NCBI GenBank assembly: GCA_002796325.1
Contig: PCXA01000001.1
Location: 260,838 to 324,837 of the forward strand
Origin: Deltaproteobacteria bacterium CG11_big_fil_rev_8_21_14_0_20_47_16
Lineage (GTDB): Bacteria > UBA10199 > GCA-002796325 > 1-14-0-20-47-16
Direction: 5' to 3'
Length of the DNA: 64,000 bases
Shown: positions 4,892 to 47,296 of the stretch, piece by piece
How positions within the stretch are numbered: position 1 is the first letter of the stretch
How the letters are laid out: each line of letters starts with the position of its first letter
Made by a program: the position numbers and the translations under genes
The notes under the pieces: generated by a model
What the model was told of the DNA's origin: nothing
Databases searched by the model: none
Seen by the model: the letters and a program-made list of their open reading frames with translations, nothing else

Positions 4892-4920
4892 AAGCAACTT
4901 CTGCTAAGAATTGCCGATAA
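4892..4920 (+). promoter_or_regulatory. sigma-28/FliA-like promoter motif AGCAACTTCT-N10-GCCGATAA
   Basis: -10-like GCCGATAA at 4913-4920, 17 nt before the ATG at 4938. Same bipartite motif as five other sites in the window. Confidence 0.5.
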
Positions 4921-13826: not shown

Positions 13827-13922
13827 ATCTGTGATGAAGGTATCGGTAGGTATTGAAATAAGTTGTGTATAATATTGTGACGACTGTGTGACAAGAATTG
13901 GTGCGCTGAAGTGGGAGTGTTG

Positions 13923-25233: not shown

Positions 25234-26367
25234 ATGAGCTCCATTAATATTCAATTTGCAGAAACCACCACAACCTTGCCCCATTCCGCGGAGGCCCCCG
25301 TATTACGCCTTGCGGGTGGCGATGGGCATGTTGCGCAGGCCATTCGTCAGGTGACTAATGAATTTTTGCCGATCGTGAGTGAATCGCGCGCCATGCAAGA
25401 TGTGTTGCAGGCTCTGAAGGAAGAAGAAGGTCGAAGTGGCCCCGTTGTGTTTGTAGGAGAATCGGGTTCGGGTAAACAGTTTCTTGCACGCCATCTGCAT
25501 AGTCGTTGTTCTGGTGCTGCTGGTCCTTATCTTACAATCGATGCGCGGCGTATGGCAGTTGAAGCAATTGATCAAATTTTGTTGGGCTACTGGCACAAAC
25601 CACTTTTTGGTAAAGCGGAAGTCATCCCAGGAATGCTCGCAGAAGCTGCGGGTGGAACATTGGTGATTCGCGGTTTTGAAACAGTGCCGTGGCGTGTGCA
25701 AGAATTGTTGGTCCCGGTTGTGACGGATGGCCACTATCAGCCATTGAATGTTCAAGAGTCTTTACCAGTGCAATGTCGCATTGTTTTTGTGTTTGAATCG
25801 GCAGTATTTCCTCGTAGTAGCGAAAAAGTTTTGGCGCCACAGTTGTGGGAGGCATTGAAGGATCGCGTTGTGCAGGTTCCCACATTGCAAGCACGACGGG
25901 ATGACGTGTTGCCACTTGCTGAATATTTTTTGAATCGTCAGGCGCAAGAGTGGGGTCAACCCAGACGCGAACTGAGTACTGCTGCTCAGAAGGTCATTAA
26001 AAAATACCGATGGCCTGGTAATGTGAAAGAACTTCAGTGGGCTATGGCAACAGCGATGACATCGACGTCGCATGAAGTTTTGGATGTTCATCATTTTCCA
26101 CCACAGTTAGCCGCAGCAGGAGAGGTGCCATCACTCGACAATGTTGCTCTTGAGGATTTTGTAGAGCAAAAGCTGGCACAATTTCTGGAGCGTGTGGGGA
26201 GCTATGATGTGAGCGACTTGCATGATGCAATCGAAACGCAAATGGAGCGCCCACTATATAAATTGGTGCTGCAACACACCAATGGCAATCAAATCAAGGC
26301 AGCGCGTATTTTAGGAATTAATCGTAATACTCTTCGTACCAAACTTCGTAAGTATGGCCTCAAGTAA
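25234..26367 (+). CDS. sigma-54 activator-like AAA+ transcriptional regulator with Fis-type HTH (no receiver domain)
   Basis: Walker A GESGSGK, Walker B region, and C-terminal ILGINRNTLRTKLRKYGL. The GAFTGA position reads PLFGKA, a degenerate motif. Confidence 0.7.
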   Translation: MSSINIQFAETTTTLPHSAEAPVLRLAGGDGHVAQAIRQVTNEFLPIVSESRAMQDVLQALKEEEGRSGPVVFVGESGSGKQFLARHLHSRCSGAAGPYLTIDARRMAVEAIDQILLGYWHKPLFGKAEVIPGMLAEAAGGTLVIRGFETVPWRVQELLVPVVTDGHYQPLNVQESLPVQCRIVFVFESAVFPRSSEKVLAPQLWEALKDRVVQVPTLQARRDDVLPLAEYFLNRQAQEWGQPRRELSTAAQKVIKKYRWPGNVKELQWAMATAMTSTSHEVLDVHHFPPQLAAAGEVPSLDNVALEDFVEQKLAQFLERVGSYDVSDLHDAIETQMERPLYKLVLQHTNGNQIKAARILGINRNTLRTKLRKYGLK

Positions 26368-26986
26368 GTTATTCCCACAGGGATTATATGTTATTGTCGA
26401 CCCGCGGTTTTTGCCGCATGGCGTGGATTTGCTCGATTATGTGAGTGAGCTGGCCCATGCGCGTGCGCCCATTATTCAATTGCGTATGAAAGATGCATCT
26501 GCATCCCAAGTTTTGGAAGTCGCACGTCGAATGATCAAGATTCGTCGCAAACACAAGTTCTTCTTCGTTGTGAATGACTACCCCGAAATTGCCAAAGAAG
26601 TGGGTGCGGATGCGGTGCATGTGGGTAAGACAGATGCGGCAATTCGTGATGCGCGTGCTGTTGTGGGGCCCGATATGATGATTGGGTTTTCATCTCACTC
26701 ATTGTCAGAGGCGGTTGCGGCTGCTGAAAAGGGCGCGGATTACGTGGCTTTGGGGGCAATTTACCCAACTGCAACGAAAGGCCCTGGACATCCTGTGCAA
26801 GGCTTGGAAACGCTGCGCCAAGTGGTGGCGGCAGTTAGTAAACCCGTTGTGGCAATTGGTGGTATTAATCGCACGAATGCAGCAGATGTTAGGGCCTGTG
26901 GGCCAGCTGCAATTGCCATGATCACAGGGATTAGTCAGGCAGAGGACGTGGCGGCGGAGGTTCGGTGGTATCAGTCCTTACGATAG
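26354..26986 (+). CDS. thiE: thiamine-phosphate synthase
   Basis: LYVIVD...HVGKTD...ALGAIYPTATK motifs. Confidence 0.85.
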   Translation: MASSKLFPQGLYVIVDPRFLPHGVDLLDYVSELAHARAPIIQLRMKDASASQVLEVARRMIKIRRKHKFFFVVNDYPEIAKEVGADAVHVGKTDAAIRDARAVVGPDMMIGFSSHSLSEAVAAAEKGADYVALGAIYPTATKGPGHPVQGLETLRQVVAAVSKPVVAIGGINRTNAADVRACGPAAIAMITGISQAEDVAAEVRWYQSLR

Positions 26987-27687
26987 CGGGTTCTGACCCC
27001 AGTGGCTGTGCCGGGATCGAAGCCGATTTGGAAATGATTGCGCGTGCCGGTGTTGCGGCGCGCACAGCGATTACGGCGCTGACGGTGCAGGGTGTTACGT
27101 CAGGGCAAGCGGTGTATGCAACACCAAGAGATGTGCTGCGCGATATTTTGAAGCAGCATTCCCAAAATTTACCAAGCGTGGTGAAGATTGGTATGATTGC
27201 CACGCGCGATAATCTTGAAGTGATCTGTGATTTTTTAGAGCGCTATCCAAAATTGCCAGTGGTTTTAGACCCAGTGTTGCGTGCCACAAGTGGTCTTCAA
27301 TTATTGGAAATGTCTGCAATTCCCCTCTTAAAGGAACGGCTTCTGCCACGTGCAACAATAGTGACACCTAACCTGGACGAAGTTGAAATGTTGTTGGGCA
27401 AACGTCCGGCCACTGTTTCTGAAATGGAAACAGCTGCACGTGAATTGCAACGCGGTACGCAAGTGATGATGGTGAAGGGTGGGCACTTGCAAGGCGATCC
27501 CGTGGATGTCATTTGGGATGGCACGCAAATGAATCACTTATCATCACCACGCATTGGTACAACGTCGCCGCGCGGTACCGGGTGCCGACTGGCATCTGGT
27601 ATTGCCGCACAGATGGCGCTGGGAAAGTCCGCTATTCAAGCATGCGCTGAAGGGAAACAAATGCTGCTGCAATGGATTCGTTATTAA
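26965..27687 (+). CDS. thiD: hydroxymethylpyrimidine/phosphomethylpyrimidine kinase
   Basis: VLTIAGSDPSGCAGIEADL...KIGM motifs. Confidence 0.85.
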   Translation: MVSVLTIAGSDPSGCAGIEADLEMIARAGVAARTAITALTVQGVTSGQAVYATPRDVLRDILKQHSQNLPSVVKIGMIATRDNLEVICDFLERYPKLPVVLDPVLRATSGLQLLEMSAIPLLKERLLPRATIVTPNLDEVEMLLGKRPATVSEMETAARELQRGTQVMMVKGGHLQGDPVDVIWDGTQMNHLSSPRIGTTSPRGTGCRLASGIAAQMALGKSAIQACAEGKQMLLQWIRY

Positions 27688-28880
27688 CCTGGTGGTAAGA
27701 GTGGGTGTAGTTGTATCAATCTATTAAGTAAGTGTTTTTCTCGTGGATGAACCGTCAGTGAGTTAAGATTTTCAGGATCAATGTCAAACCGTGATCGATG
27801 GACTTCACCCCGTTTATAGTAAATAAGTGTCCTTATATAAATAGTTGAGACGCTTGTTCGAGCCACTAGATCAAACAGCTGCTTGTCACTTTCTGAACAG
27901 TCAAGGCACTTAATAATGCGGAATGCTTCATCGAATTGACCCCAGTGAAATGCATCAACGCTGCGTTGTAGTGTTTGGCTAGTAAACGAATCGAGACCAA
28001 TATCAACATTTTCTGGAAGTGGTGCATTCTCCATCCATTGTGCCAATTTTCTTCGACGCTCGCTGTCAGTATTTCCCGCAGCCAGAATATCATTCGATGA
28101 TGGGAATGAAGTATATTGAGGTCTTGGTGGAAGGCATTGGTAAGGGTTGCCGGTAGATAGTCGATATTGAATACGTTTACCCCTTAGTGCAATGGCTGCA
28201 TACTTGCGACTTTGTTTGAGTTCCAAGTCGGGTAGATCGTCAGTGATCTCTGGATTATCCGGGATTGCTGCATTGGCAAGATAGGTAATTTTGTGAGAAC
28301 CTGCTTTTCTAAAGAGCTCAGATGCAGATTTCCAGTAATAGCGAATTTGAGAGTTACAAATGCCGTAAAGACTGCTTGTGACATCAGTTTGTAGTTGAGG
28401 GTCTGATTGAAGAAGTGCAGCGCCAATTAACCCATTTTTTTCTACTGACGCGAGGCCATAGAATAGGAAATTAAGATCGTTGGTCATGTGATGTTGTTTA
28501 TAGAATTCTGCAATTGCAACATGGTGGCGAGTATCCAAAAAGAGTAATAGGCCGTTGGCAATTGGGGGCGGAAGGTATGAAAAGTGTGTGACCCATTCGG
28601 ATTGGCTGTTGCCGTTATCAATTCCCACGCGAAATAAAAGAGCGGCAGCGTTACGTGCAGAATTTGTTGTAGTGATGCGCTGGCCCGCGGTAGGTTTCTG
28701 TCCATTCGGATAACCTTGGAGTAGAGCAATTAATATATGATGTGAGATTTCATTGTTGGATAATATGCCGTCGTGACTTTTATCTAATAGTTGGATTTGA
28801 AGCCATGTTTCACCATCAGCACGTTGCTGATTGGCTTCCTTTTGGAGTGATTTTAGTGAAATTGGCGACATAGTCTCCAT
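27684..28880 (-). CDS. hypothetical protein, paralogue of 30963-31919
   Basis: Shares blocks LLFRVGIDNG/LLWRVSLNDP, FLFYGL/VIYGIP and IRYYWKSASELF/VRQYWCKAEF with the paralogue. No recognisable domain. Confidence 0.6.
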   Translation of the reverse strand: METMSPISLKSLQKEANQQRADGETWLQIQLLDKSHDGILSNNEISHHILIALLQGYPNGQKPTAGQRITTTNSARNAAALLFRVGIDNGNSQSEWVTHFSYLPPPIANGLLLFLDTRHHVAIAEFYKQHHMTNDLNFLFYGLASVEKNGLIGAALLQSDPQLQTDVTSSLYGICNSQIRYYWKSASELFRKAGSHKITYLANAAIPDNPEITDDLPDLELKQSRKYAAIALRGKRIQYRLSTGNPYQCLPPRPQYTSFPSSNDILAAGNTDSERRRKLAQWMENAPLPENVDIGLDSFTSQTLQRSVDAFHWGQFDEAFRIIKCLDCSESDKQLFDLVARTSVSTIYIRTLIYYKRGEVHRSRFDIDPENLNSLTVHPREKHLLNRLIQLHPLLPPG

Positions 28881-28897
28881 ACGCTATACTCATACTA

Positions 28898-28926
28898 TCA
28901 TCGGCAAATAACCAAAAAAGTTGCGG
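28898..28926 (-). promoter_or_regulatory. sigma-28-like motif GCAACTTTTTT-N-GCCGATGA
   Basis: Read in gene direction: cgccGCAACTTTTTTggttatttGCCGATGA, then 33 nt to the ATG at 28880. Confidence 0.5.
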
Positions 28927-29059
28927 CGATTGTAAGGTGAAGTGTTCTCATTTTGATAGAGCCGGTATGTTTTGACGCCAAAATTTGCCATATTCATTAA
29001 ATTTAACCAAATAGGGAATCCAATATTCATATAAATCAAGTGGTTATCGCCAAGTTGCC

Positions 29060-29075
29060 TGGTATGAATTTTGCT
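29060..29075 (+). promoter_or_regulatory. sigma-54-type -24/-12 element TGGTAT-N5-TTGCT
   Basis: GG-N10-GC spacing matching the TGGCAC-N5-TTGCA consensus, about 70 nt upstream of the secreted-protein gene. Confidence 0.4.
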
Positions 29076-29145
29076 CGTTTAAAGTCCATTCAGGTCGGGC
29101 ATGTATCCGTACCGGAACCATTGATAAGGAGTGCTTATGACGAAG

Positions 29146-30960
29146 CGTTATCTTCATATGGGAATTGCCGTTTCAGTTACTACTCTCATGATTTCATATG
29201 GGGCATTTGGGCAGGGGCGTCCGGCGGTGCCTGCACCTTCCTATTCCAACTCTGCACGGTCAACTTATGCGGCACCAAAACCAAACACTTCCACAACACG
29301 GGTTATTACCATTACCAATAAGCCGTCTGCGCGGTCTTCCGCCAATCAGCGCCCCACACAAGCGGAACAAAGGAAGAGTGTGAGTGTGTTTGATCGATTC
29401 TTCAATCTTCTCAATTCATTGGAAGTTCAACATGGGCGCTACCATGGTAAGCAAGAGGTGGCGGACATGCTGCACAATAGTTCCATCTTTGCGAGTGATG
29501 TGGGCCGTTATGCGGATGAGTTTGGCAATCCCGGCAACCTGGATAATTCAGATTCCGTCATGAACACAATTTATAAAGATGCATCTGATGCAGAGCTGGC
29601 ATCTTTTGCGATGGGATTAATCGCAGAACAGTCTGTGCAAAATAATCTGAAAAGTCAGTTTGAAAAGTATCAAGGTCAAGAAGCAGCCAATCTTCAGAAG
29701 CAACTCGCCATTGAAATGAATCCTACCTTGGCAATTCAAAAGTGGATTGAAATGGGGAAGAAGACCGAAGACGAAAACAAAAAGAAGGATGGCTCCGATC
29801 TGCCGGGATCTGTGCCAACATCCGTCGCAGGATTCAACAAATCACAACTGCCCCTTTCGGGTGGTGGCGCATCATTTATTTCTGGCAGTTGCCTCAAGAA
29901 ATTTGGTGCGGCGCTGCCATCTGGTATTAAGGGTGGTTCCGGAGGAAGTTCGTTTGCGGGTGATGTGCCGCCAGACTCCGGTGGTGCTGCGCCTGGTGGT
30001 ATGGGGCCCGACGGCAAGCCTGTAACGTTGGGACAGTCTGTAAAACAGGGAACCTTTAAAGCGGATTGTGGGGGATTCGATTATTCAAAAGCAGACAGCG
30101 ATGGTGCGGTGGGTAAGCCCCCTGAAGGTGCAAACGTATATAAGACATCAAACCATATATTTAAAGGCGAAGATGGCATGGGTAGACCCTATGCGACAAA
30201 AGTGGAGTTAACATCATACGAGCATTATTATCCAAGTGACCCTGCTACGAAACGTATCCAGATTGCTATGACAGTAACGGTGACGGACTTAAGTACAGGT
30301 AAAACCGCATTTTCAGATGGAAAAATCAGTCAGACGGTAGCTGGTGGGCCGGCAGCTGTGTCGGGTGAATGGAATATCGATACAGCGAGTGGAACCTTGC
30401 CAGTTAATATCCAAGTAAAACTTAATAATGATAATTACTTCGAGTATACGGCGAAAGGACTCATTTATGCGAGTGGTGGTTGGGGAAAAATTGAGAAGTG
30501 GTCATATTCCTCTTACGGCGAAAAGGGCAGTGGTTATCAGTGGATAAATGCGTCAAACAAGACTGAGAATCCCATGGATGAAAAAACATCCGGTGCCAAT
30601 GCGAAGCAACAATGTTTGAATGCTGCATTTCAAACGGCTGGTGACTGCGCCATGAGTTTTATTGCAGGTATTAAGGATGGGGTGACTGCCATACAGAGTT
30701 TGAATTGTATGGGGGTTGGTGGCGGGGGCGCTGCCGGCATGCCCGTGGATGGCAGTAATCCGGTGTTGGCATGTGCCAAGAAGATGGGTATTGAGGGATT
30801 GGACCAAATGAAGATGTTTATGAAGATGGGTGGTGGTTTTTCAGACCCTATTATTATGCAGCAGGTTCAGACCAACACCCCTTATAACAATACACGGGTC
30901 CAAACACCTCAGCAGAATCAGATGCGCAATCAACCCAGTAATGTTTGGTATAAACGCTAA
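29146..30960 (+). CDS. secreted Gly/Ser-rich low-complexity protein
   Basis: RBS AAGGAG, signal peptide MTKRYLHMGIAVSVTTLMISYGAFGQ, long GG/GS tracts and a Cys-containing C-terminal region. No known domain. Confidence 0.65.
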   Translation, partial: RYLHMGIAVSVTTLMISYGAFGQGRPAVPAPSYSNSARSTYAAPKPNTSTTRVITITNKPSARSSANQRPTQAEQRKSVSVFDRFFNLLNSLEVQHGRYHGKQEVADMLHNSSIFASDVGRYADEFGNPGNLDNSDSVMNTIYKDASDAELASFAMGLIAEQSVQNNLKSQFEKYQGQEAANLQKQLAIEMNPTLAIQKWIEMGKKTEDENKKKDGSDLPGSVPTSVAGFNKSQLPLSGGGASFISGSCLKKFGAALPSGIKGGSGGSSFAGDVPPDSGGAAPGGMGPDGKPVTLGQSVKQGTFKADCGGFDYSKADSDGAVGKPPEGANVYKTSNHIFKGEDGMGRPYATKVELTSYEHYYPSDPATKRIQIAMTVTVTDLSTGKTAFSDGKISQTVAGGPAAVSGEWNIDTASGTLPVNIQVKLNNDNYFEYTAKGLIYASGGWGKIEKWSYSSYGEKGSGYQWINASNKTENPMDEKTSGANAKQQCLNAAFQTAGDCAMSFIAGIKDGVTAIQSLNCMGVGGGGAAGMPVDGSNPVLACAKKMGIEGLDQMKMFMKMGGGFSDPIIMQQVQTNTPYNNTRVQTPQQNQMRNQPSNVWYKR

Positions 30961-30962
30961 GA

Positions 30963-31919
30963 TTATTCTTTGGGGAGGTCCTTCATGATTCTTCGAAGCA
31001 CTTCGATTCGATTCATCAAAGCTTGATTCTGGGCGTTGGGTGTAATGAATTCGATGCCGTCTTCATCACGAATTGAATCAATCTCATTTGGCACATACTC
31101 ATACTCCCCTTTGCCAATCCGAATGCGCATCATTAGGTAGTGATATTCGATAGTCCTATTTAATTCATTTGCAGTTTCATCGTCATATGCAGGGCTCAAA
31201 TGGATCGCTTGTCGCGCGGCTTCGTAACCGTCTGTATAATACGCTGCAAGTGCATTTCGTAAAAGGGCGTATGCCGTTTTGGATATTTGCATGCTACCGA
31301 TGTTGGGATCGGGAGAATCGACCAGCCACTGGTGAATGCGTGCTTTGAATGAGGCTATATTGTCGACTGCTGCAACACCGTGATTCGCCTTTTCGAGAGG
31401 ACAAATGTTGGGTTGGGTGCCAGTCGGATCAAATTCGGCCTTACACCAGTACTGGCGAACTTGCGGATCTCTGTTGTAACCATTGAGTGCATTATGAATG
31501 GCTGCTTTCATTTTGCGATTATTGAGAAATTGTGCCCCATATAAAAATGACAAGCCTGTTTGAGGAATGCCATAAATCACATGATTAAAATCGTTCGTTC
31601 TCTTGTTAACAAAATAATAATTGGCCAATGTCTTGATGTGTTCAACATCAAAGTAGGCCATGATGCCATTTGCCATATGAAGTGGTAGGAAGGCAAAGCG
31701 GTTCGCCCAATAGTTTAGACTCTTGGGGTCGTTGAGGCTGACCCGCCATAAAAGTGCTGCTGCGCGAGGCGATAATTTTAAAAGGGATTGAAACCCCAAT
31801 TCATCTTCATCAAGTTGGCGGTTATGACCTGCAAGCGTAAAGAGTGTTTGGCGATCCTTGTTGCTGAGGAATCCCCACTCGGCTGTGCGTTGAAGTGTAT
31901 TGAGGTTGATTGGTCTCAT
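30963..31919 (-). CDS. hypothetical protein, paralogue of 27684-28880
   Basis: See the paralogue. Convergent with the secreted-protein gene, 2 nt gap. Confidence 0.6.
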   Translation of the reverse strand: MRPINLNTLQRTAEWGFLSNKDRQTLFTLAGHNRQLDEDELGFQSLLKLSPRAAALLWRVSLNDPKSLNYWANRFAFLPLHMANGIMAYFDVEHIKTLANYYFVNKRTNDFNHVIYGIPQTGLSFLYGAQFLNNRKMKAAIHNALNGYNRDPQVRQYWCKAEFDPTGTQPNICPLEKANHGVAAVDNIASFKARIHQWLVDSPDPNIGSMQISKTAYALLRNALAAYYTDGYEAARQAIHLSPAYDDETANELNRTIEYHYLMMRIRIGKGEYEYVPNEIDSIRDEDGIEFITPNAQNQALMNRIEVLRRIMKDLPKE

Positions 31920-31946: not shown

Positions 31947-31973
31947 TATCGGGAAATCAGTAAAAAAGTTGCT
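31947..31973 (-). promoter_or_regulatory. sigma-28-like motif AGCAACTTTTTT-N-CCCGATAA
   Basis: Read in gene direction: catAGCAACTTTTTTactgatttCCCGATAA, 27 nt upstream of the ATG at 31919. Confidence 0.5.
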
Positions 31974-31992: not shown

Positions 31993-32844
31993 TTATCCGC
32001 GGGCCAGATGGGAGTAGGCAGTCATTAATTCTTTAGTGACGAGGCCTGGGGCCTTCTTTTTGCAAATTCCGGAAATCTCGGCGATGGGTAGGACTTCGCT
32101 GGTTGATCCTGTTATGAAAATCTCGTCTGCATCTTTAAGCGTTTTGACGGTGAAGTGGGTTTCCTTCCAGGGGATTTCGAGGGTGTCGGCGGCGCCAAGT
32201 ACGGCGCTTCGGGTGACCCCAGGCAAAATGCCATCCGAGATGGGTGGGGTCAAAAGGCGACCATTCTTAATAACGAATAAATTGGATGCACTGCCTTCCA
32301 AAATTTGTCCCGTATCATTGGTGAGTAAGGCGTCAGCGGCTTTAGCGGCATTGGCTTCGCGGCGTGCAAGCATCTTGGTTAAATAGTTGGTGGTTTTGAT
32401 GTTGGAAAGTCGTGGCTGATCGGCAACAACTGTTTCGGCAATCACCAGTTTTGCACCATGTGTATACCACCGTTGTGGTTTTCCTTCGAACGCTTTGCAA
32501 AATGCAACAACTTGCATCTTCATATGCTTGGGCATTTCCATGCCAGTGGATGCACCTACTGCGCTTATCGTGACGCGAATGTAGGCATTAGGTGTTTTGT
32601 TACGGTTGATGAGTTGTTTTAACATGCGGCCAAATGCGTATTCATCGAGAGGCATGTCGAGTCCAAGTGCTGAACAGTTTTCCAACAGACGATAATAGTG
32701 TAGTTTTAGAAATGAAATGTGCCCATCGTACGAACGCAATGTTTCGAAGCATCCTTCACCATACAAGTAGCTGCGATCAAATACGGAAATTTTGGCATCC
32801 TTCTCAGAAACAAAACGACCATTGAGATAAATTACTGTGGGCAT
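31993..32844 (-). CDS. class IV aminotransferase (aminodeoxychorismate lyase/BCAT-like)
   Basis: Fold-type IV PLP enzyme pattern (EGCFET...NLFVIKNGRLLTP); 283 aa. Confidence 0.8.
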   Translation of the reverse strand: MPTVIYLNGRFVSEKDAKISVFDRSYLYGEGCFETLRSYDGHISFLKLHYYRLLENCSALGLDMPLDEYAFGRMLKQLINRNKTPNAYIRVTISAVGASTGMEMPKHMKMQVVAFCKAFEGKPQRWYTHGAKLVIAETVVADQPRLSNIKTTNYLTKMLARREANAAKAADALLTNDTGQILEGSASNLFVIKNGRLLTPPISDGILPGVTRSAVLGAADTLEIPWKETHFTVKTLKDADEIFITGSTSEVLPIAEISGICKKKAPGLVTKELMTAYSHLARG

Positions 32845-33434
32845 AGCTGGTTTTGAATGTCCTCGATTGGCATAAACTGAATGGGGGATTCGTGATGGTT
32901 TTCTTCAGCGGATTTGTTGCGTGCAGCGTTGTATCGCACCATCTTTTGTGCCAGCTCTGTGGCCCGCTCTTCTGCCAGCGCTGCATTGGGGCGCAATTCC
33001 TTGTCCAATCCCATAGAGATAATTGTTAGTCGGCCTTCGATGGTATCGAAAACCAAAACAGGATCATACACACCAAACCAAGCATCTGGCTTATCTCCAT
33101 GATTGGGCGATTTGTCATTCGATGCGGCGCTAAATTCGGGCAGCATGTACCCCACGAGACCTGAATAAAATGGAAAGTACGGGTCCTTGGGCAGCTCTTT
33201 GAGCGGCGCCATAAATTTTTGTAGCGCATCAGACGGTGTATCAATGCGTGTGTGATCGTCGATGGATACAAACGCACCAGTAGACGAGAACTTTTTGAGT
33301 GGGTTCCATCCGATGAGTGTGTAGCGCTTGTCAATTTGAACCATGAATGCACCAGGTTGGCTTGCGAAAGGAGCATACGCATCCATTGCATCGCCATACC
33401 AGTGAATTGGAAATGTGTAGGGAAGTTCACTCAT
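32832..33434 (-). CDS. anthranilate/aminodeoxychorismate synthase component I N-terminal-domain-only protein
   Basis: Aligns to the first ~190 aa of PabB/TrpE (FPFYSGLVGYMLPEF ~ LPFQGGALGLFGYDLGRRFE; DAWFGVYDPVLVFD ~ DMAVGIYDWALIVD). It stops where the chorismate-binding domain should begin. Confidence 0.5.
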   Translation of the reverse strand: MSELPYTFPIHWYGDAMDAYAPFASQPGAFMVQIDKRYTLIGWNPLKKFSSTGAFVSIDDHTRIDTPSDALQKFMAPLKELPKDPYFPFYSGLVGYMLPEFSAASNDKSPNHGDKPDAWFGVYDPVLVFDTIEGRLTIISMGLDKELRPNAALAEERATELAQKMVRYNAARNKSAEENHHESPIQFMPIEDIQNQLCPQ

Positions 33435-35599: not shown

Positions 35600-35648
35600 G
35601 TCCTTGCGGCTTTGAGGTTGCTGATTTAGGCAGAGCCTCCGATTTTAT

Positions 35649-35735
35649 GGAAAGATGGCCGAGTGGCTGAAGGCGCACGCTTGGAAAGCGTGTATACGGT
35701 AAAACGTATCGAGGGTTCGAATCCCTCTCTTTCCG
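35649..35735 (+). tRNA. tRNA-Ser (anticodon GGA)
   Basis: Cloverleaf with acceptor GGAAAGA/UCUUUCC, anticodon loop UUGGAAA, long variable arm, T-loop UUCGAAU and discriminator G. Confidence 0.85.
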
Positions 35736-36738: not shown

Positions 36739-36766
36739 AGCAACTTTTTGGGCATATATCCGATAG
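36739..36766 (+). promoter_or_regulatory. sigma-28-like motif AGCAACTTTTT-N10-TCCGATAG
   Basis: Same bipartite motif, 22 nt upstream of the ATG at 36789. Confidence 0.45.
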
Positions 36767-37318: not shown

Positions 37319-40300
37319 TTACCAAGTTATATTAACAAAGTTAGAAATGTATTCAGCATCACCATCAGGCAAAAACCCAAGTACCCATAGAGATCCATCA
37401 TTCTTGATGAATGAGCTGAGTCCAACACTACTCACGTTGCTCAAGTATCCCGAACCTTCTGGGTTTGGAATCAACTGAGGATCCCAAATCGCAATTGTAT
37501 TGCCAATCCCCAATTCACCAATGGCGTTGCTACCCCAAGTCCAGGCCTGACCATCATTCGTTAGTGCCAAGTAACTGCGTCCGCTGTCACAACCCAGTTG
37601 AACGGCATTGGTGATCTGGTGAACTGGCATGATGATGTTGAGTGGGTTTGCAGTTGATGAAACACCCAAGGGTTGGATGGAAGCGTTGACACCCCAGCCC
37701 AGAACAGTACCATTGCTCAAAAGTACTAATGTATCTGCAGCACCTGTACAGGTATCAATTGCTGTATCAATAGTGCCACCATCATAGCTTGTAATCTGGG
37801 TGGGCTTATTGACGTGGTTTGTATTAGCGAGATTGCCTGCACGATATGCGGAGTTGTTGCCCCAACCAAATAGGGTGCCAGATTCTGTGATGACCATATA
37901 TTGTGCAGAGCCACTGGAGATCTTTTTAACATTGGTGGGCAGGTCAGGTATGAGTGTGGGCGTCGCTGTGCTTGTGAAAGAACCAATGCCCAATTGACCG
38001 TCGCCGTTATATCCGGCTGCATAGCCTGTTGTCACACTGGTCGCAGGATCCTTTTTGATAAATACAGAACTTTCAAAGCCAGCCGATATGGATGTCACAC
38101 CTGACATTTCTCCAGAGCCGCTGGGGTCGATGACTTTCACAGGGTCACAAGTCGGTGTGGAAGATGCGCTGCCGTTACCCAGTTGGCCAGAAGAATTTTT
38201 CCCCCATGCCCACACCGTTCCATCGTCTGCCAGTGCTAGAGAATGGAAACCGCCGCGCGAAATGGCGACAATGTTTTTCAATTTTGTGGGCGCAACTTGT
38301 ACTGGTGAATTGAAGAGAAGCTTCGTGCCAGATTTGTCAGACATTCCCATTTCACATTGATAGTTGCTGCCCCATGCCCACACCGTTCCATCGTCTGCCA
38401 AAAGCAGGTAGCTGTTTTTCCCAGCGTATCCGGTGTTGGCCAATGAGACGCTAATGGCGGCTGCAGGGGGCACTGAAAGCATGTGATAGGGGTTGTAAGT
38501 TGCAAATGAAGCACTGCCATTGCCAAGTTGACCATTCAAATTGTATCCGGCGGTGATAATGCTGCCGTCCGTTTTAAGAATGGCCGTTCCTTGTGCAGAG
38601 CCGACGACAGATGCAATGTCTTTAATGGCACCCATTTTGAGCGGGGACTTCTGGACCGCATTAGCATTGGTGTTGGCAATGCCCAACTGACCAAAGCTAT
38701 CATCTCCCCACATCCATAGGTTGCCATCTGCCTTGATTGTATAGATCTGACGTGAATAACTACCCATGAATGCCTTAACGACATTTTCCATGGCCAAATA
38801 GGGTGTATTTGTAAAGCTGCTGCCAGAGCCAACCGATAGAGATTGATTGCCCGTTTGCCCATATCGATTATCTCCCCACGTGTAGAGTTTTCTATCGTTG
38901 GTCAATGCAGCAAATGTATTGCTGCCGGAAATAATCGTTTTGATGTCAGTCAGAGGGTTTCCCGATACCATTAACTGAACCGGGAGGCTGCGAATTGTTG
39001 TGGTACCATCACCAATTTGTCCTGAGTTATTGTTGCCCCACAACCATGCAGTGGTTGTGGTTGGATCCTGTGGGTCTGTTTGTGTAAGGACAATTGCTGT
39101 GCCAACACCCGCTGCAATTTGTTTGATGGTACCACTCAGGCCCTGTACTTGTACGGGTGTTGGATTGGGGTTAACGCTCGATGTGGTGCCATTGCCCAGG
39201 TTCCCCTGCAAATTTAGGCCCCACGCCCAGAGTGTGCCATCGGATTTAAGTGCATAGACTGTATATGAGGCTGCTGCAATTTGAGCGACATCGCTTATTG
39301 TAGTAATTTGCGTTGGTACCAACCGAAGGCTATTAGAGCCATCTCCCTGTTGGCCGAATCGATTATCTCCCCATCCCCACACAGTGCCATCATTTTTAAG
39401 AGCGAAAGTGGATGTTGCACCCTGTGCAACATCTTTGACATCGCTGATGTTGATTCGAACAGGGAGGCTGCGAATTGTTGTGGTACCATCACCAATTTGA
39501 CCAGAATGATTTTTGCCCCATCCCCAGAGCGTTCCATTTTCTTTGAGTGCATAGAAGGTGTAAGGCCCAGTAATGACTTGAACCACTTTTGAACTATTTG
39601 TCTTGAATGTGTAGGAATAATTGTGCGTCATGGCGTTGCCAGCACTGTCTTTGATGCCTGTCGTTGCGACAACCAAATACGCTTCACTATCCAATAGTGA
39701 ACTGTCTGGCGTAAAGGTAATGCTGGTGCCGCTGACGTCTAATGCGATGCTACCGCTTACGCTGTTGCCAAGGCTGTCTGTAACGGTCAATGTTTGTGTG
39801 TTGGCGGTATCTGCCGCAATCGCCTCGCTGAATTGAATTTGGATGGTTGATGTAAGTGGTGTGGCCGCATTGCCAAGTGCGGGTGATGTACTCGTTACAT
39901 AAGGTGGTGTTAAATCCGTTGTGCTCGGGATGGGATTCCCAATGACGAAGCTCCATATATAGGGTGCCGCCAATGCGTTTCCAGCAAGATCGGTTACGGT
40001 TGCTTTAAGTGAAGCGGTATATATTTCAGCCTGCTTTAATGATGATGTGGGTGTGAAAATAATATTAAGTTGCAGTGCATCCAGGCTCACCGTGCCGGCA
40101 ATGGCGGCACCTGCGCTGTCGACAACTGAAATGCTGTCGGTCGCAATTGAATTGATATCCATGGATTCACTAAATTGAACCGAAATGGAGGAACTTGCGA
40201 GTGCGCCCTTGCTTCCGAGGGTAGGGGTGGTGGAGGTAATGTAGGGTGCCACCTTGTCGCTTTTATTGGAAGTGGATGCGGTGTTTGAAGAGTTACCGCT

Positions 40301-40435
40301 ATTGCCTGTACTGTCTGTGGTGCTCAATGGAGTATCAGACGCGCCGTCCGCGCCAGAAGGGGAAGAGGAGCACCCACAGAAGAGGAGTGCTGTACAGAGG
40401 CCGAGTGTGATGGAGTTTTGTATAATTTTAAACAT
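37319..40435 (-). CDS. large lipoprotein with Ig-like (Big) domains and RCC1/alpha-tubulin-suppressor-like beta-propeller repeats
   Basis: Lipobox LLFCGC, Ser/Thr linker, Ig-like repeats (SESMD..., IQFSEAI...), and more than ten WGxNxxGQLG repeats. Confidence 0.8.
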   Translation of the reverse strand: MFKIIQNSITLGLCTALLFCGCSSSPSGADGASDTPLSTTDSTGNSGNSSNTASTSNKSDKVAPYITSTTPTLGSKGALASSSISVQFSESMDINSIATDSISVVDSAGAAIAGTVSLDALQLNIIFTPTSSLKQAEIYTASLKATVTDLAGNALAAPYIWSFVIGNPIPSTTDLTPPYVTSTSPALGNAATPLTSTIQIQFSEAIAADTANTQTLTVTDSLGNSVSGSIALDVSGTSITFTPDSSLLDSEAYLVVATTGIKDSAGNAMTHNYSYTFKTNSSKVVQVITGPYTFYALKENGTLWGWGKNHSGQIGDGTTTIRSLPVRINISDVKDVAQGATSTFALKNDGTVWGWGDNRFGQQGDGSNSLRLVPTQITTISDVAQIAAASYTVYALKSDGTLWAWGLNLQGNLGNGTTSSVNPNPTPVQVQGLSGTIKQIAAGVGTAIVLTQTDPQDPTTTTAWLWGNNNSGQIGDGTTTIRSLPVQLMVSGNPLTDIKTIISGSNTFAALTNDRKLYTWGDNRYGQTGNQSLSVGSGSSFTNTPYLAMENVVKAFMGSYSRQIYTIKADGNLWMWGDDSFGQLGIANTNANAVQKSPLKMGAIKDIASVVGSAQGTAILKTDGSIITAGYNLNGQLGNGSASFATYNPYHMLSVPPAAAISVSLANTGYAGKNSYLLLADDGTVWAWGSNYQCEMGMSDKSGTKLLFNSPVQVAPTKLKNIVAISRGGFHSLALADDGTVWAWGKNSSGQLGNGSASSTPTCDPVKVIDPSGSGEMSGVTSISAGFESSVFIKKDPATSVTTGYAAGYNGDGQLGIGSFTSTATPTLIPDLPTNVKKISSGSAQYMVITESGTLFGWGNNSAYRAGNLANTNHVNKPTQITSYDGGTIDTAIDTCTGAADTLVLLSNGTVLGWGVNASIQPLGVSSTANPLNIIMPVHQITNAVQLGCDSGRSYLALTNDGQAWTWGSNAIGELGIGNTIAIWDPQLIPNPEGSGYLSNVSSVGLSSFIKNDGSLWVLGFLPDGDAEYISNFVNITW

Positions 40436-40595
40436 ACCTATATAGGCGTAAGCAAATTAGGTGCCATGACGTCAAGGATGTAAATGAAAAAACGCCTTGT
40501 TTTTTGAGTGCTTACATTAATCTAAATAAACCATTTTACAGTCGTTTTGAGAATAACGGGTATTTGAGTGGATTTCAGGGTGTTTTTCACCCATT

Positions 40596-44252: not shown

Positions 44253-44280
44253 TTATCGGCAAAACAACTGAAAAGTTGCT
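44253..44280 (-). promoter_or_regulatory. sigma-28-like motif AAGCAACTTTT-N10-GCCGATAA
   Basis: Exact GCCGATAA box, 32 nt upstream of the ATG at 44221. Confidence 0.5.
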
Positions 44281-46243: not shown

Positions 46244-47227
46244 TTAAAGTGTTGGACCGCCGATTTGATAGTGCAGAAAATACATCATAGAGCTCCAAGT
46301 TTCTTCCATCATGCGACATGTGGCTGCAATACTGGGTTGCGTTTGAATGCCCAGGTTTTGAGCAGTATAAGATGCCACTTCGCGGGTACGTTCGTGTTGA
46401 TCTTCTATGCCCTGTTGTAGAATCGCCGCTTGATCCTTCTTCTTTAGATAGTGGACTTGTTCCAAAACGCAAGCGCGCACGAAACCATTAGAATCATTCA
46501 TGCCACGTTGGGCGATAGCTAAGCGGTCTTCAGGTTTCAGGTACTTGAGTTGTCGAACTGCGGTGCTGCGAGTTGCCGCATTCTCAGAGTCTAGCCCTTG
46601 TTGCACGAATGCCCGTCGGTCTTCCAGTTTTAAGCAAAACGTTTGTGCTGCCGCCACTTCTGTAATTCTGCCATCCCAGCTGGCAGTGAATTTTGTGCCC
46701 TCTTCAAGAAATTCGAGGTGGTTCGCAATTGGCAAGTATTGCACTGCAGTTATTGCGGATATCATGAGTTCAACACTATAAGGATGATCAAACCGATTCT
46801 GGGTAACTGCTGCTTTATAATAGTCAAATATCTGTCGAATAACTGTGATGCGTTCTGTAATTGGTAAATATTGTATGTTCTGCCCAAGCATATAAAGATG
46901 ACTAGGGGTACAGAAAAGAAGTGCCGAATCGAGAGTGGATGAGTTTGCACAAATTGCTTCAGCTGGACGATCCTCGTGCTTAGCTATGCGAAATAATTGT
47001 TTGGCTTCAGCTTGCGAAAAGAGCTTTTGGAGTTGCGCCACGCTTGGCCACCGCTCACCTGTAAGGGCTGGCGATATTTCTTCATAAGTTAGAAAGCCGT
47101 CACCGTTTTTGTCGGCGACAAGGAGTGATTCCAGCCACGCCCGTTCATCGGCAGATATCAAAGGATTGTTGAGCCATTTCGCAGCGGAAGCAATATCTAC
47201 GCTATCACTATTAAGTGGTTTAACCAT
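46244..47227 (-). CDS. HEAT-repeat protein
   Basis: C-terminal HEAT/PBS-lyase-like repeats (DSENAATRSTAVRQL..., DSNGFVRACVLEQV...). Confidence 0.6.
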   Translation of the reverse strand: MVKPLNSDSVDIASAAKWLNNPLISADERAWLESLLVADKNGDGFLTYEEISPALTGERWPSVAQLQKLFSQAEAKQLFRIAKHEDRPAEAICANSSTLDSALLFCTPSHLYMLGQNIQYLPITERITVIRQIFDYYKAAVTQNRFDHPYSVELMISAITAVQYLPIANHLEFLEEGTKFTASWDGRITEVAAAQTFCLKLEDRRAFVQQGLDSENAATRSTAVRQLKYLKPEDRLAIAQRGMNDSNGFVRACVLEQVHYLKKKDQAAILQQGIEDQHERTREVASYTAQNLGIQTQPSIAATCRMMEETWSSMMYFLHYQIGGPTL

Positions 47228-47268: not shown

Positions 47269-47296
47269 TTATCGGCTATCCATTAAAAAGGTTGCT
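47269..47296 (-). promoter_or_regulatory. sigma-28-like motif AGCAACCTTTTT-N-GCCGATAA
   Basis: Exact GCCGATAA box, 41 nt upstream of the ATG at 47227. Confidence 0.5.

Follow-up and report, generated by a model that had tools for sequence, protein, structure and literature searches.

Three neighbouring genes, here called A, M and B (locus tags COV45_01520/25/30), were analysed in a 64,000-nucleotide stretch (the window) of contig PCXA01000001.1, which belongs to a metagenome-assembled genome of an uncultured 'Deltaproteobacteria' from the CG11 groundwater set. The reading that we tentatively prefer is that A, M and B are independently regulated, lineage-specific orphan genes, inserted where a class-IV aminotransferase gene and thiD otherwise meet in a conserved convergent arrangement. 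A and B would each form their own transcription unit, expressed from a promoter of the sigma-28 (FliA) type, and would encode cytoplasmic scaffold- or sensor-type proteins of the sigma-28 regulon, with A possibly responsive to Ca2+. M would be transcribed separately, its best promoter candidate being a sigma-54-type -24/-12 element with a site for integration host factor (IHF), and would be a Sec-exported protein of the envelope or surface. The only coupling of the three genes that the sequence supports is transcriptional: the divergent A and M promoters would lie together in 256 bp, and the convergence of M and B, which is free of a terminator, could give mutual interference in expression. 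The genes and the two edges of the insertion are as follows.

thiD, 26965-27687, plus strand, left edge of the insertion
Paralogue A, 27684-28880, minus strand, open reading frame (ORF) of 398 amino acids (aa), or 395 aa from the probable true start at ATG 28871
M, 29137-30960, plus strand, exported protein of 607 aa with a predicted Sec-type signal peptide
Paralogue B, 30963-31919, minus strand, 318 aa
Class-IV aminotransferase gene, 31993-32844, minus strand, right edge of the insertion

The original prediction, made from the DNA letters alone, had described A and B as a pair of paralogues around a secreted protein, and our ORF scan recovered all three ORFs at the coordinates that it gave. 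M has 607 aa instead of 605, as a ribosome-binding site (AAGGAG, 29127-29132) precedes the ATG at 29137, and this length agrees with the NCBI gene model. For each of A, M and B a dicodon coding score, trained on housekeeping genes within the window, was positive in the annotated frame only. Their GC content, third-position GC content (GC3) and codon adaptation were also similar to those of the neighbouring genes; the three are real genes and native-looking in this genome. The stop codons of M (30958-30960) and B (30963-30965) face each other across the 2-nucleotide (nt) gap that had been predicted, and those of thiD, on the plus strand, and A, on the minus strand, overlap inside a TTAA palindrome (27684-27687). 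No terminator-like hairpin was detected at either of these convergent junctions. A and M are divergent, and the 256-bp region between them holds both of their candidate promoters.

The site of insertion became apparent from relatives that were found with the conserved aminotransferase as search anchor. Three of them, L004, L022 and L023 (38%, 52% and 43% identity, respectively), have conserved synteny, with pabB and the aminotransferase gene running towards thiD and thiE. In all three the aminotransferase gene converges directly on thiD across a gap of 12-144 nt that holds no gene; therefore the A-M-B block represents an insertion of about 4.3 kb that is specific to a narrow clade. Beside the block we found no flanking direct or inverted repeats and no remnants of mobile elements, and a recent horizontal transfer or mobile-element origin was rejected given this lack of repeats and a GC content and codon usage like those of the neighbours. 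Assemblies from several independent sequencing datasets were 100% identical at this locus, and strain variation was rejected since all contigs from other assemblies were identical. Next to the right edge, the gene annotated as 'PabB' (32832-33434, minus strand) encodes a 200-aa Anth_synt_I_N domain alone. Both L004 (492 aa) and L022 retain a chorismate-binding domain between Anth_synt_I_N and the aminotransferase, so that the catalytic domain of PabB has seemingly been lost in the present lineage.

A and B are diverged, full-length paralogues, as had been claimed on the ground of collinear sequence blocks. BLASTP gave 33% identity across 110 aa (E=3e-17), and one further homologue, the 390-aa protein P0002 encoded on a 1.4-kb Logan contig (L003), is 45% identical to A over its full length. 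In a three-way alignment A, B and P0002 are collinear from their first residues (M-x-P-I-x-L-x-x-L) to the C-terminus, with two insertions accounting for the approximately 80 additional residues of A over B. The C-terminal half of B matches that of P0002 (24% over 130 aa, E=7e-5), and the paralogy of A and B therefore extends over the full length. As the second ATG of A (28871) lines up with the place where B and P0002 begin and shares their GGAG-N3-ATG layout, it is most likely the start codon, which gives a protein of 395 aa. No further paralogues were found in the window by tblastn. The part of the family that is most conserved is the following.

Most conserved core of the A/B family, 28323-28649, minus strand, A aa 78-186

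The orphan status of the genes was assessed with word-index searches spanning 5.8 billion clusters, which returned only A, B and M themselves and P0002, and with a HMMER profile scan that ran exhaustively through 1.84 billion representatives and returned only its three input sequences (A, B and P0002). Three proteins out of about 15 billion thus make up the A/B family, and no homologue of M was found in these same homology searches. The view of the original prediction that A and B match no known domain held: searches of Pfam, NCBIfam, PADLOC, PHROGs and PDB sequences gave nothing significant for the genes. Foldseek, run with the A model on PDB and BFVD, returned generic TPR, HEAT and 14-3-3 folds, at best with E=0.44 and a TM-score below 0.25. 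This AlphaFold2 (AF2) model is all-alpha, with 21 helices, a mean predicted local distance difference test (pLDDT) score of 63 and a disordered insert at aa 199-269. With sizes of 36-45 kDa, A and B contain neither a signal peptide nor a transmembrane or other hydrophobic segment. We infer that they are diverged paralogues of a cytoplasmic, all-alpha protein family. The long form, as in A and P0002, carries one canonical EF-hand loop near the N-terminus and would be ancestral; B is shorter, has evolved faster and no longer has this loop.

L003 comes from the one close relative; its aminotransferase fragment is 89% identical, and it offers a view on the history of the block. The A-like P0002 stands there directly after the aminotransferase gene, in the slot that B takes in the window, and the contig ends 5 nt beyond the P0002 stop codon. 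The promoter of P0002 resembles that of B (GCAACTTTTTTACTG), and its coding sequence resembles A, including the insertions and the EF-hand. Judged from these sequences, the simplest history would start from an ancestor with a single long-form gene beside the aminotransferase gene, followed by a duplication, after which the proximal copy (B) changed rapidly and became shorter, and by a later gain of M between the two copies. Alternatively, B and M may have been lost in the L003 lineage.

The separate regulation of A and B is indicated by a promoter motif. A sigma-28-like motif had been reported upstream of both paralogues; we located it at each of them, at 28900-28922 and 31948-31970 on the minus strand, and found it to be enriched in the window, with the sites given below.

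Candidate sigma-28-type promoter of A, 28900-28924, minus strand, GCAACTTT-N11-GCCGATGA, with CCGAT ending 28 nt before ATG 28871
Candidate sigma-28-type promoter of B, 31948-31972, minus strand, GCAACTTT-N11-CCCGATAA, with CCGAT ending 28 nt before the ATG
Motif site, 4896-4918, plus strand, upstream of a 436-aa domain-less protein
Motif site, 13842-13864, minus strand, upstream of a 942-aa histidine kinase
Motif site, 36742-36764, plus strand, upstream of a 170-aa probable lipoprotein, domain-less
Motif site, 44255-44277, minus strand, upstream of a 59-aa ORF followed by a vasohibin-like protease
Motif site, 47271-47293, minus strand, upstream of a HEAT-repeat protein (46244-47227)

The pattern AACTTT-N12-CCGAT occurred seven times at one mismatch or fewer, against 1.34 expected, and none of 100 shuffled sequences reached seven. 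All seven sites lie in intergenic DNA, which makes up a fraction of 0.14 of the window, and all are oriented to a start codon 15-43 nt downstream. CCGAT is present in every site and GC precedes the motif in five of the seven (GCAACTTT), giving a consensus layout of GCAACTTT-N11-sCCGATrA. The motif is also kept upstream of P0002, with GCCGATAC as the -10 octamer in L003, despite the protein identity to A of only 45%. The enterobacterial FliA consensus, as in E. coli, is TAAAGTTT-N11-GCCGATAA. The positions AA.TTT agree with the -35 half of sigma-28 sites and the spacing is exactly 11 nt, but the full -35 half reads GCAACTTT and not TAAAGTTT. Window genes behind the motif are mostly lineage-specific, and the housekeeping genes of the window are without it. 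No flagellar genes were found in the 64 kb or in the 10 kb flanking it on either side. Taken by their sequence and placement, the seven sites look like part of a sizeable regulon of lineage-specific genes, with at least seven transcription units in this window, and the motif is probably read by a sigma-28 (FliA-type) factor. Additionally, a CCGAT element that is not accompanied by the AACTTT half was observed at 35625-35648 on the plus strand, separated by 5-10 nt from the mature 5' end of the downstream tRNA-Ser(GGA) at 35649; this could be due to chance or to a wider use of CCGAT-type -10 elements.

The suggestion that A senses Ca2+ comes from a loop near its N-terminus.

EF-hand-type loop in A, 28746-28784, minus strand, aa 33-45, DKSHDGILSNNEI

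P0002 has such a loop in the same alignment column (aa 30-42, DKDRDGSISKNEI), and both proteins match PROSITE pattern PS00018, for which the match rate in shuffled sequences was about 0.0007; B is degenerate at this place and does not match. In the AF2 model of A, the loop stands between helix 23-34 on its N-terminal side and helices 39-42 and 47-54 on its C-terminal side, with a pLDDT of about 58-72, and the loop gave weak alignments to the EF loops of parvalbumin and calmodulin. A scan with PS00018 did not find a second, paired loop. The sole other PS00018 match among the real ORFs of the window was in the 327-aa HEAT-repeat protein (46244-47227, minus strand), which contains the loop DKNGDGFLTYEEI at aa 39. 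This protein has Pfam HEAT repeats and likewise stands behind the sigma-28-like motif. Its N-terminal 70 aa or so resemble A (hhalign E=0.012; BLASTP 48% over 27 aa), and its match to the A/B profile is confined to the EF-hand segment. These comparisons suggest a recurring architecture in the regulon, with an N-terminal EF-hand and a body of helical repeats, for which homology is so far confined to the loop.

M is the only one of the three proteins with a signal peptide, which bears out the earlier description of a secreted protein between two cytoplasmic ones. The predicted Sec-type signal peptide covers aa 1-25 with cleavage at AFG|QG, and it is followed by a disordered stretch rich in proline, serine and threonine, a helical region (about aa 84-214), a Gly-rich linker (about aa 215-345), a beta-rich region (about aa 332-471), and a C-terminal part consisting of a helix and a tail rich in glutamine and asparagine. 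M contains six cysteines, has an overall glycine content of 11.7% and was without internal repeats. Of the earlier characterisation as a secreted, Gly-rich, low-complexity protein of 605 aa, the predicted secretion stands. Apart from the corrected length, M is Gly-rich only in the linker, about one-fifth of the protein, and ordinary elsewhere. In two independent public assemblies the contigs (L019 and L020) break within the Gly-rich region, at about 29983-30064 of the window. A hypervariable spot in M was considered and rejected there, since the unaligned ends consist of Illumina adapter and a fold-back copy of the downstream sequence and are assembly artefacts.

Upstream of M, where no sigma-70-like promoter was detected, two elements were located.

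Candidate -24/-12 element, 29060-29075, plus strand, TGGTATGAATTTTGCT (TGGTAT-N5-TTGCT), 61 nt before the M start codon
IHF site with perfect consensus, 29034-29046, plus strand, AATCAAGTGGTTA, matching WATCAANNNNTTR, located 13 nt before the -24 element

The element TGGTATGAATTTTGCT agrees with TGGCACG-N4-TTGCW at 10 of 12 positions, including the invariant GG and GC with the correct GG-N10-GC spacing, and the probability of such a match in the 256-nt region upstream of M was about 0.03. An IHF site upstream of a -24/-12 element is the usual architecture of sigma-54 promoters, as for nif, Pu and the class III flagellar genes of Caulobacter. The IHF consensus was matched 10 times in the window compared to 4.4 times expected, and one would fall by chance into the 100 nt before the -24/-12 site with a probability of roughly 0.7%. 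No inverted repeat or upstream activator site was found upstream of the -24/-12 element. The element had been proposed earlier and is present with the correct spacing; it is not above chance on its own and is made plausible by the adjacent IHF consensus. On these sequence features, we give roughly even odds that it is a genuine sigma-54 site. Of the two different alternative-sigma signals that had been proposed for the block, the sigma-28-type motif is enriched and conserved, and the sigma-54 site is not significant alone.

A gene resembling those for sigma-54 enhancer-binding proteins (EBPs) lies nearby at 25234-26367 on the plus strand and encodes an AAA+ domain ('Sigma54_activat') and a Fis-type helix-turn-helix (HTH), with no receiver domain. 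Compared to PspF, this protein has KPLFGK at the position of GAFTGA, and LVIRGF at the Walker B motif LFLDEL, by which the DE residues are lost; judged from these motifs, it probably does not work as a sigma-54 activator. In L023, where the A-M-B block is absent, the gene accompanies thiE/thiD as part of an ancestral synteny, and in L004 it is reduced to one for a 117-aa Fis-like HTH protein. As a regulator of M it was rejected on account of the degenerate motifs and of its thiED synteny in L023 without A-M-B. The 64-kb window does not contain rpoN. The best sigma-54 match of the window was TGGCACCTAATTTGCT (one mismatch; 40451-40466, minus strand), which lies directly upstream of a gene for a 1038-aa RCC1-repeat/Big_5 protein (37319-40435). 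As just some 16 nt separate TGGCACCTAATTTGCT from the annotated ATG, the true start of this protein may be further downstream.

Several observations weigh against our reading of A, M and B as separately regulated orphans with the roles given above. The confidence of the A model is only moderate, and the single-sequence AF2 model of M was unusable (pLDDT 36), so that only the secondary-structure layout of M is informative. The EF-hand model of Pfam had no match at E<=1, and a single unpaired EF-hand loop may fail to bind Ca2+. Sigma-54 matches with at most two mismatches numbered 23 in the window compared to 15.9 expected, a number reached by six of 100 shuffled sequences, and a looser sigma-54 pattern was at chance level (12 against 10.2 expected). 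The -35 half of the enriched motif, GCAAC(TTT), differs from TAAAG/TTAAG of known sigma-28 sites, and another sigma factor could read it; because of this difference the sigma-28 assignment is probable and not proven. Finally, A, M and B are jointly absent from L004, L022 and L023, and a functional module would look alike.

Such a module, in which M would act after secretion as an effector or surface protein, with A and B as its dedicated cytoplasmic chaperones, immunity proteins or assembly factors, is an unlikely explanation in our assessment. In its favour are also the tight packing of the genes, with a divergent control region of 256 bp and 2 nt between M and B, and the restriction of all three orphans to one narrow lineage. 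However, M is encoded on the plus strand, opposite to A and B, which each have a promoter of their own and of another class than that of M, so that the three share no operon. Typical secretion chaperones and immunity proteins are far smaller than 36-45 kDa, the sizes of A and B. As M carries a Sec signal peptide, it would not need a dedicated chaperone and would act outside the compartment of A and B; once exported, it would not meet a cytoplasmic immunity protein. PADLOC gave no match, and the library and structure searches revealed no toxin, effector, chaperone or immunity domain. Unrelated genes of the window stand behind the same promoter motif, L003 has an A-like gene directly after the aminotransferase gene in the slot of B, and hhalign found no relation between the A/B profile and M. 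From these points we infer that a physical partnership of A and B with M is probably absent. Regarding the original idea of a self-contained module, what remains is a discrete, lineage-specific block with flanks that are adjacent in L004, L022 and L023, and not the effector, chaperone or immunity function. Against a role of A and B as chaperone or immunity partners speak their size, their predicted cytoplasmic location, and their placement on the opposite strand behind another class of promoter than the Sec-exported M.

A second alternative concerns only one part of our reading and leaves the genes as ordinary orphans: the motif could be read by a sigma factor of the extracytoplasmic function (ECF) type or another lineage-specific sigma factor instead of sigma-28. 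In that case the earlier picture of two alternative-sigma signals would be incorrect in its details. ECF sigma factors recognise an 'AAC' motif at -35 and usually a -10 element like CGTC or TCTRA. The -35 half GCAAC/AACTTT of the window motif is nearer to this 'AAC' than to TAAAG, no flagellar gene in the window bears the motif, and the motif was not enriched at the loci of more distant relatives. However, the -10 half sCCGATAA and the spacing of 11 nt between the octamers match the sigma-28 consensus exactly, which makes this alternative doubtful.

It is rather improbable that A and B are exported by a non-Sec route, for example by the flagellar export apparatus, and act extracellularly or in another cell. 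Campylobacter has sigma-28-dependent, non-flagellar secreted proteins, and bacterial EF-hand loops are often found in extracytoplasmic proteins. The sigma-28-type promoters, together with an EF-hand loop that would meet high Ca2+ concentrations outside, favour this route. So does the fast divergence, as A and P0002 are 45% identical while the adjacent aminotransferase fragments are 89% identical, which is typical of proteins with interaction interfaces. However, there is no secretion-system or flagellar gene in the window and no export signal was recognised in A or B, and if P0002 is another paralogue and not the orthologue, which it may be, the argument from rate would fall. That the three ORFs are spurious or decaying and without function is very improbable: they are without homologues or domains, and B is shortened and has lost its EF-hand loop, but the ORFs are intact and of considerable length, have good ribosome-binding sites, score positive for dicodons only in the annotated frames, share with P0002 a full-length identity of 45% (A) and a conserved layout of promoter and ribosome-binding site, and are identical in the assemblies of several independent datasets.

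Lineages that are poorly sampled commonly contain orphan genes, and nothing in the analysis indicates a new mechanism; the block is otherwise a set of hypothetical proteins. A bolder possibility, to which we give little credence, is that A, B and the EF-hand/HEAT protein form a previously unseen class of Ca2+-sensing alpha-solenoids in a developmental or motility cascade leading from sigma-54 to sigma-28, and that together with the exported M they make up a new envelope or surface module that, for instance, translates Ca2+ signals into the deployment of surface structures. If the sigma-28 reading is true, many lineage-specific genes of this uncultured lineage would be driven by a FliA-type sigma factor whose -35 preference has changed. 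This would be a parallel to the expanded FliA regulon of Bdellovibrio, with A, B and the EF-hand/HEAT protein as entry points to the programme. The A/B family in addition shows clearly how an orphan gene can arise and its copies diverge unequally, at an insertion site that can be dated. The results that can be reused most are the variant promoter class of the sigma-28 type, the loop of the EF-hand kind, and the datable insertion with its asymmetric divergence of paralogues.

In comparison to known systems, the block resembles effector or toxin systems with chaperones or immunity proteins in that an exported M is flanked by cytoplasmic A and B in a lineage-specific island. It differs from them in the opposite strands, the separate promoters, the large A and B, the Sec export and the lack of a toxin or immunity domain. 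With alpha-solenoid scaffolds of the TPR, HEAT or 14-3-3-like kind, A shares an all-helical model of about 21 helices and the generic folds at the top of the Foldseek results, whereas it has no significant structure or sequence match and Pfam detected no repeat family in it. Like the EF-hand proteins calmodulin and parvalbumin, and in agreement with PS00018, A and P0002 have a conserved 12-residue loop (DxSxDGxLxxxE or DxDxDGxIxxxE) with predicted flanking helices; unlike in these proteins, the loop of A is single and N-terminal on an all-alpha protein of about 395 aa, and that of B is lost. The M site has the TGG-N9-TGC geometry of the sigma-54/IHF promoters of nif, Pu and Caulobacter class III genes, with 10 of 12 positions and WATCAANNNNTTR 13 nt upstream, whereas it is at chance level alone, has no activator repeat and lies near an EBP-like gene that is degenerate. 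For the motif of A and B, the -35 half GCAAC(TTT) sets it apart from the class-3/late promoters of FliA and from the FliA promoters of Bdellovibrio, and it is equal to the E. coli FliA promoters in octamer spacing and -10 sequence. In Bdellovibrio bacteriovorus, the FliA consensus TTAAG-N16-CCGATA drives two-thirds of the mapped attack-phase promoters, many of them belonging to uncharacterised non-flagellar genes (Karunker et al. 2013, PMC3627812). The window motif shares with that regulon the -10 sequence CCGATA(A), the many uncharacterised non-flagellar genes, and short 5' untranslated regions as in FliA promoters.

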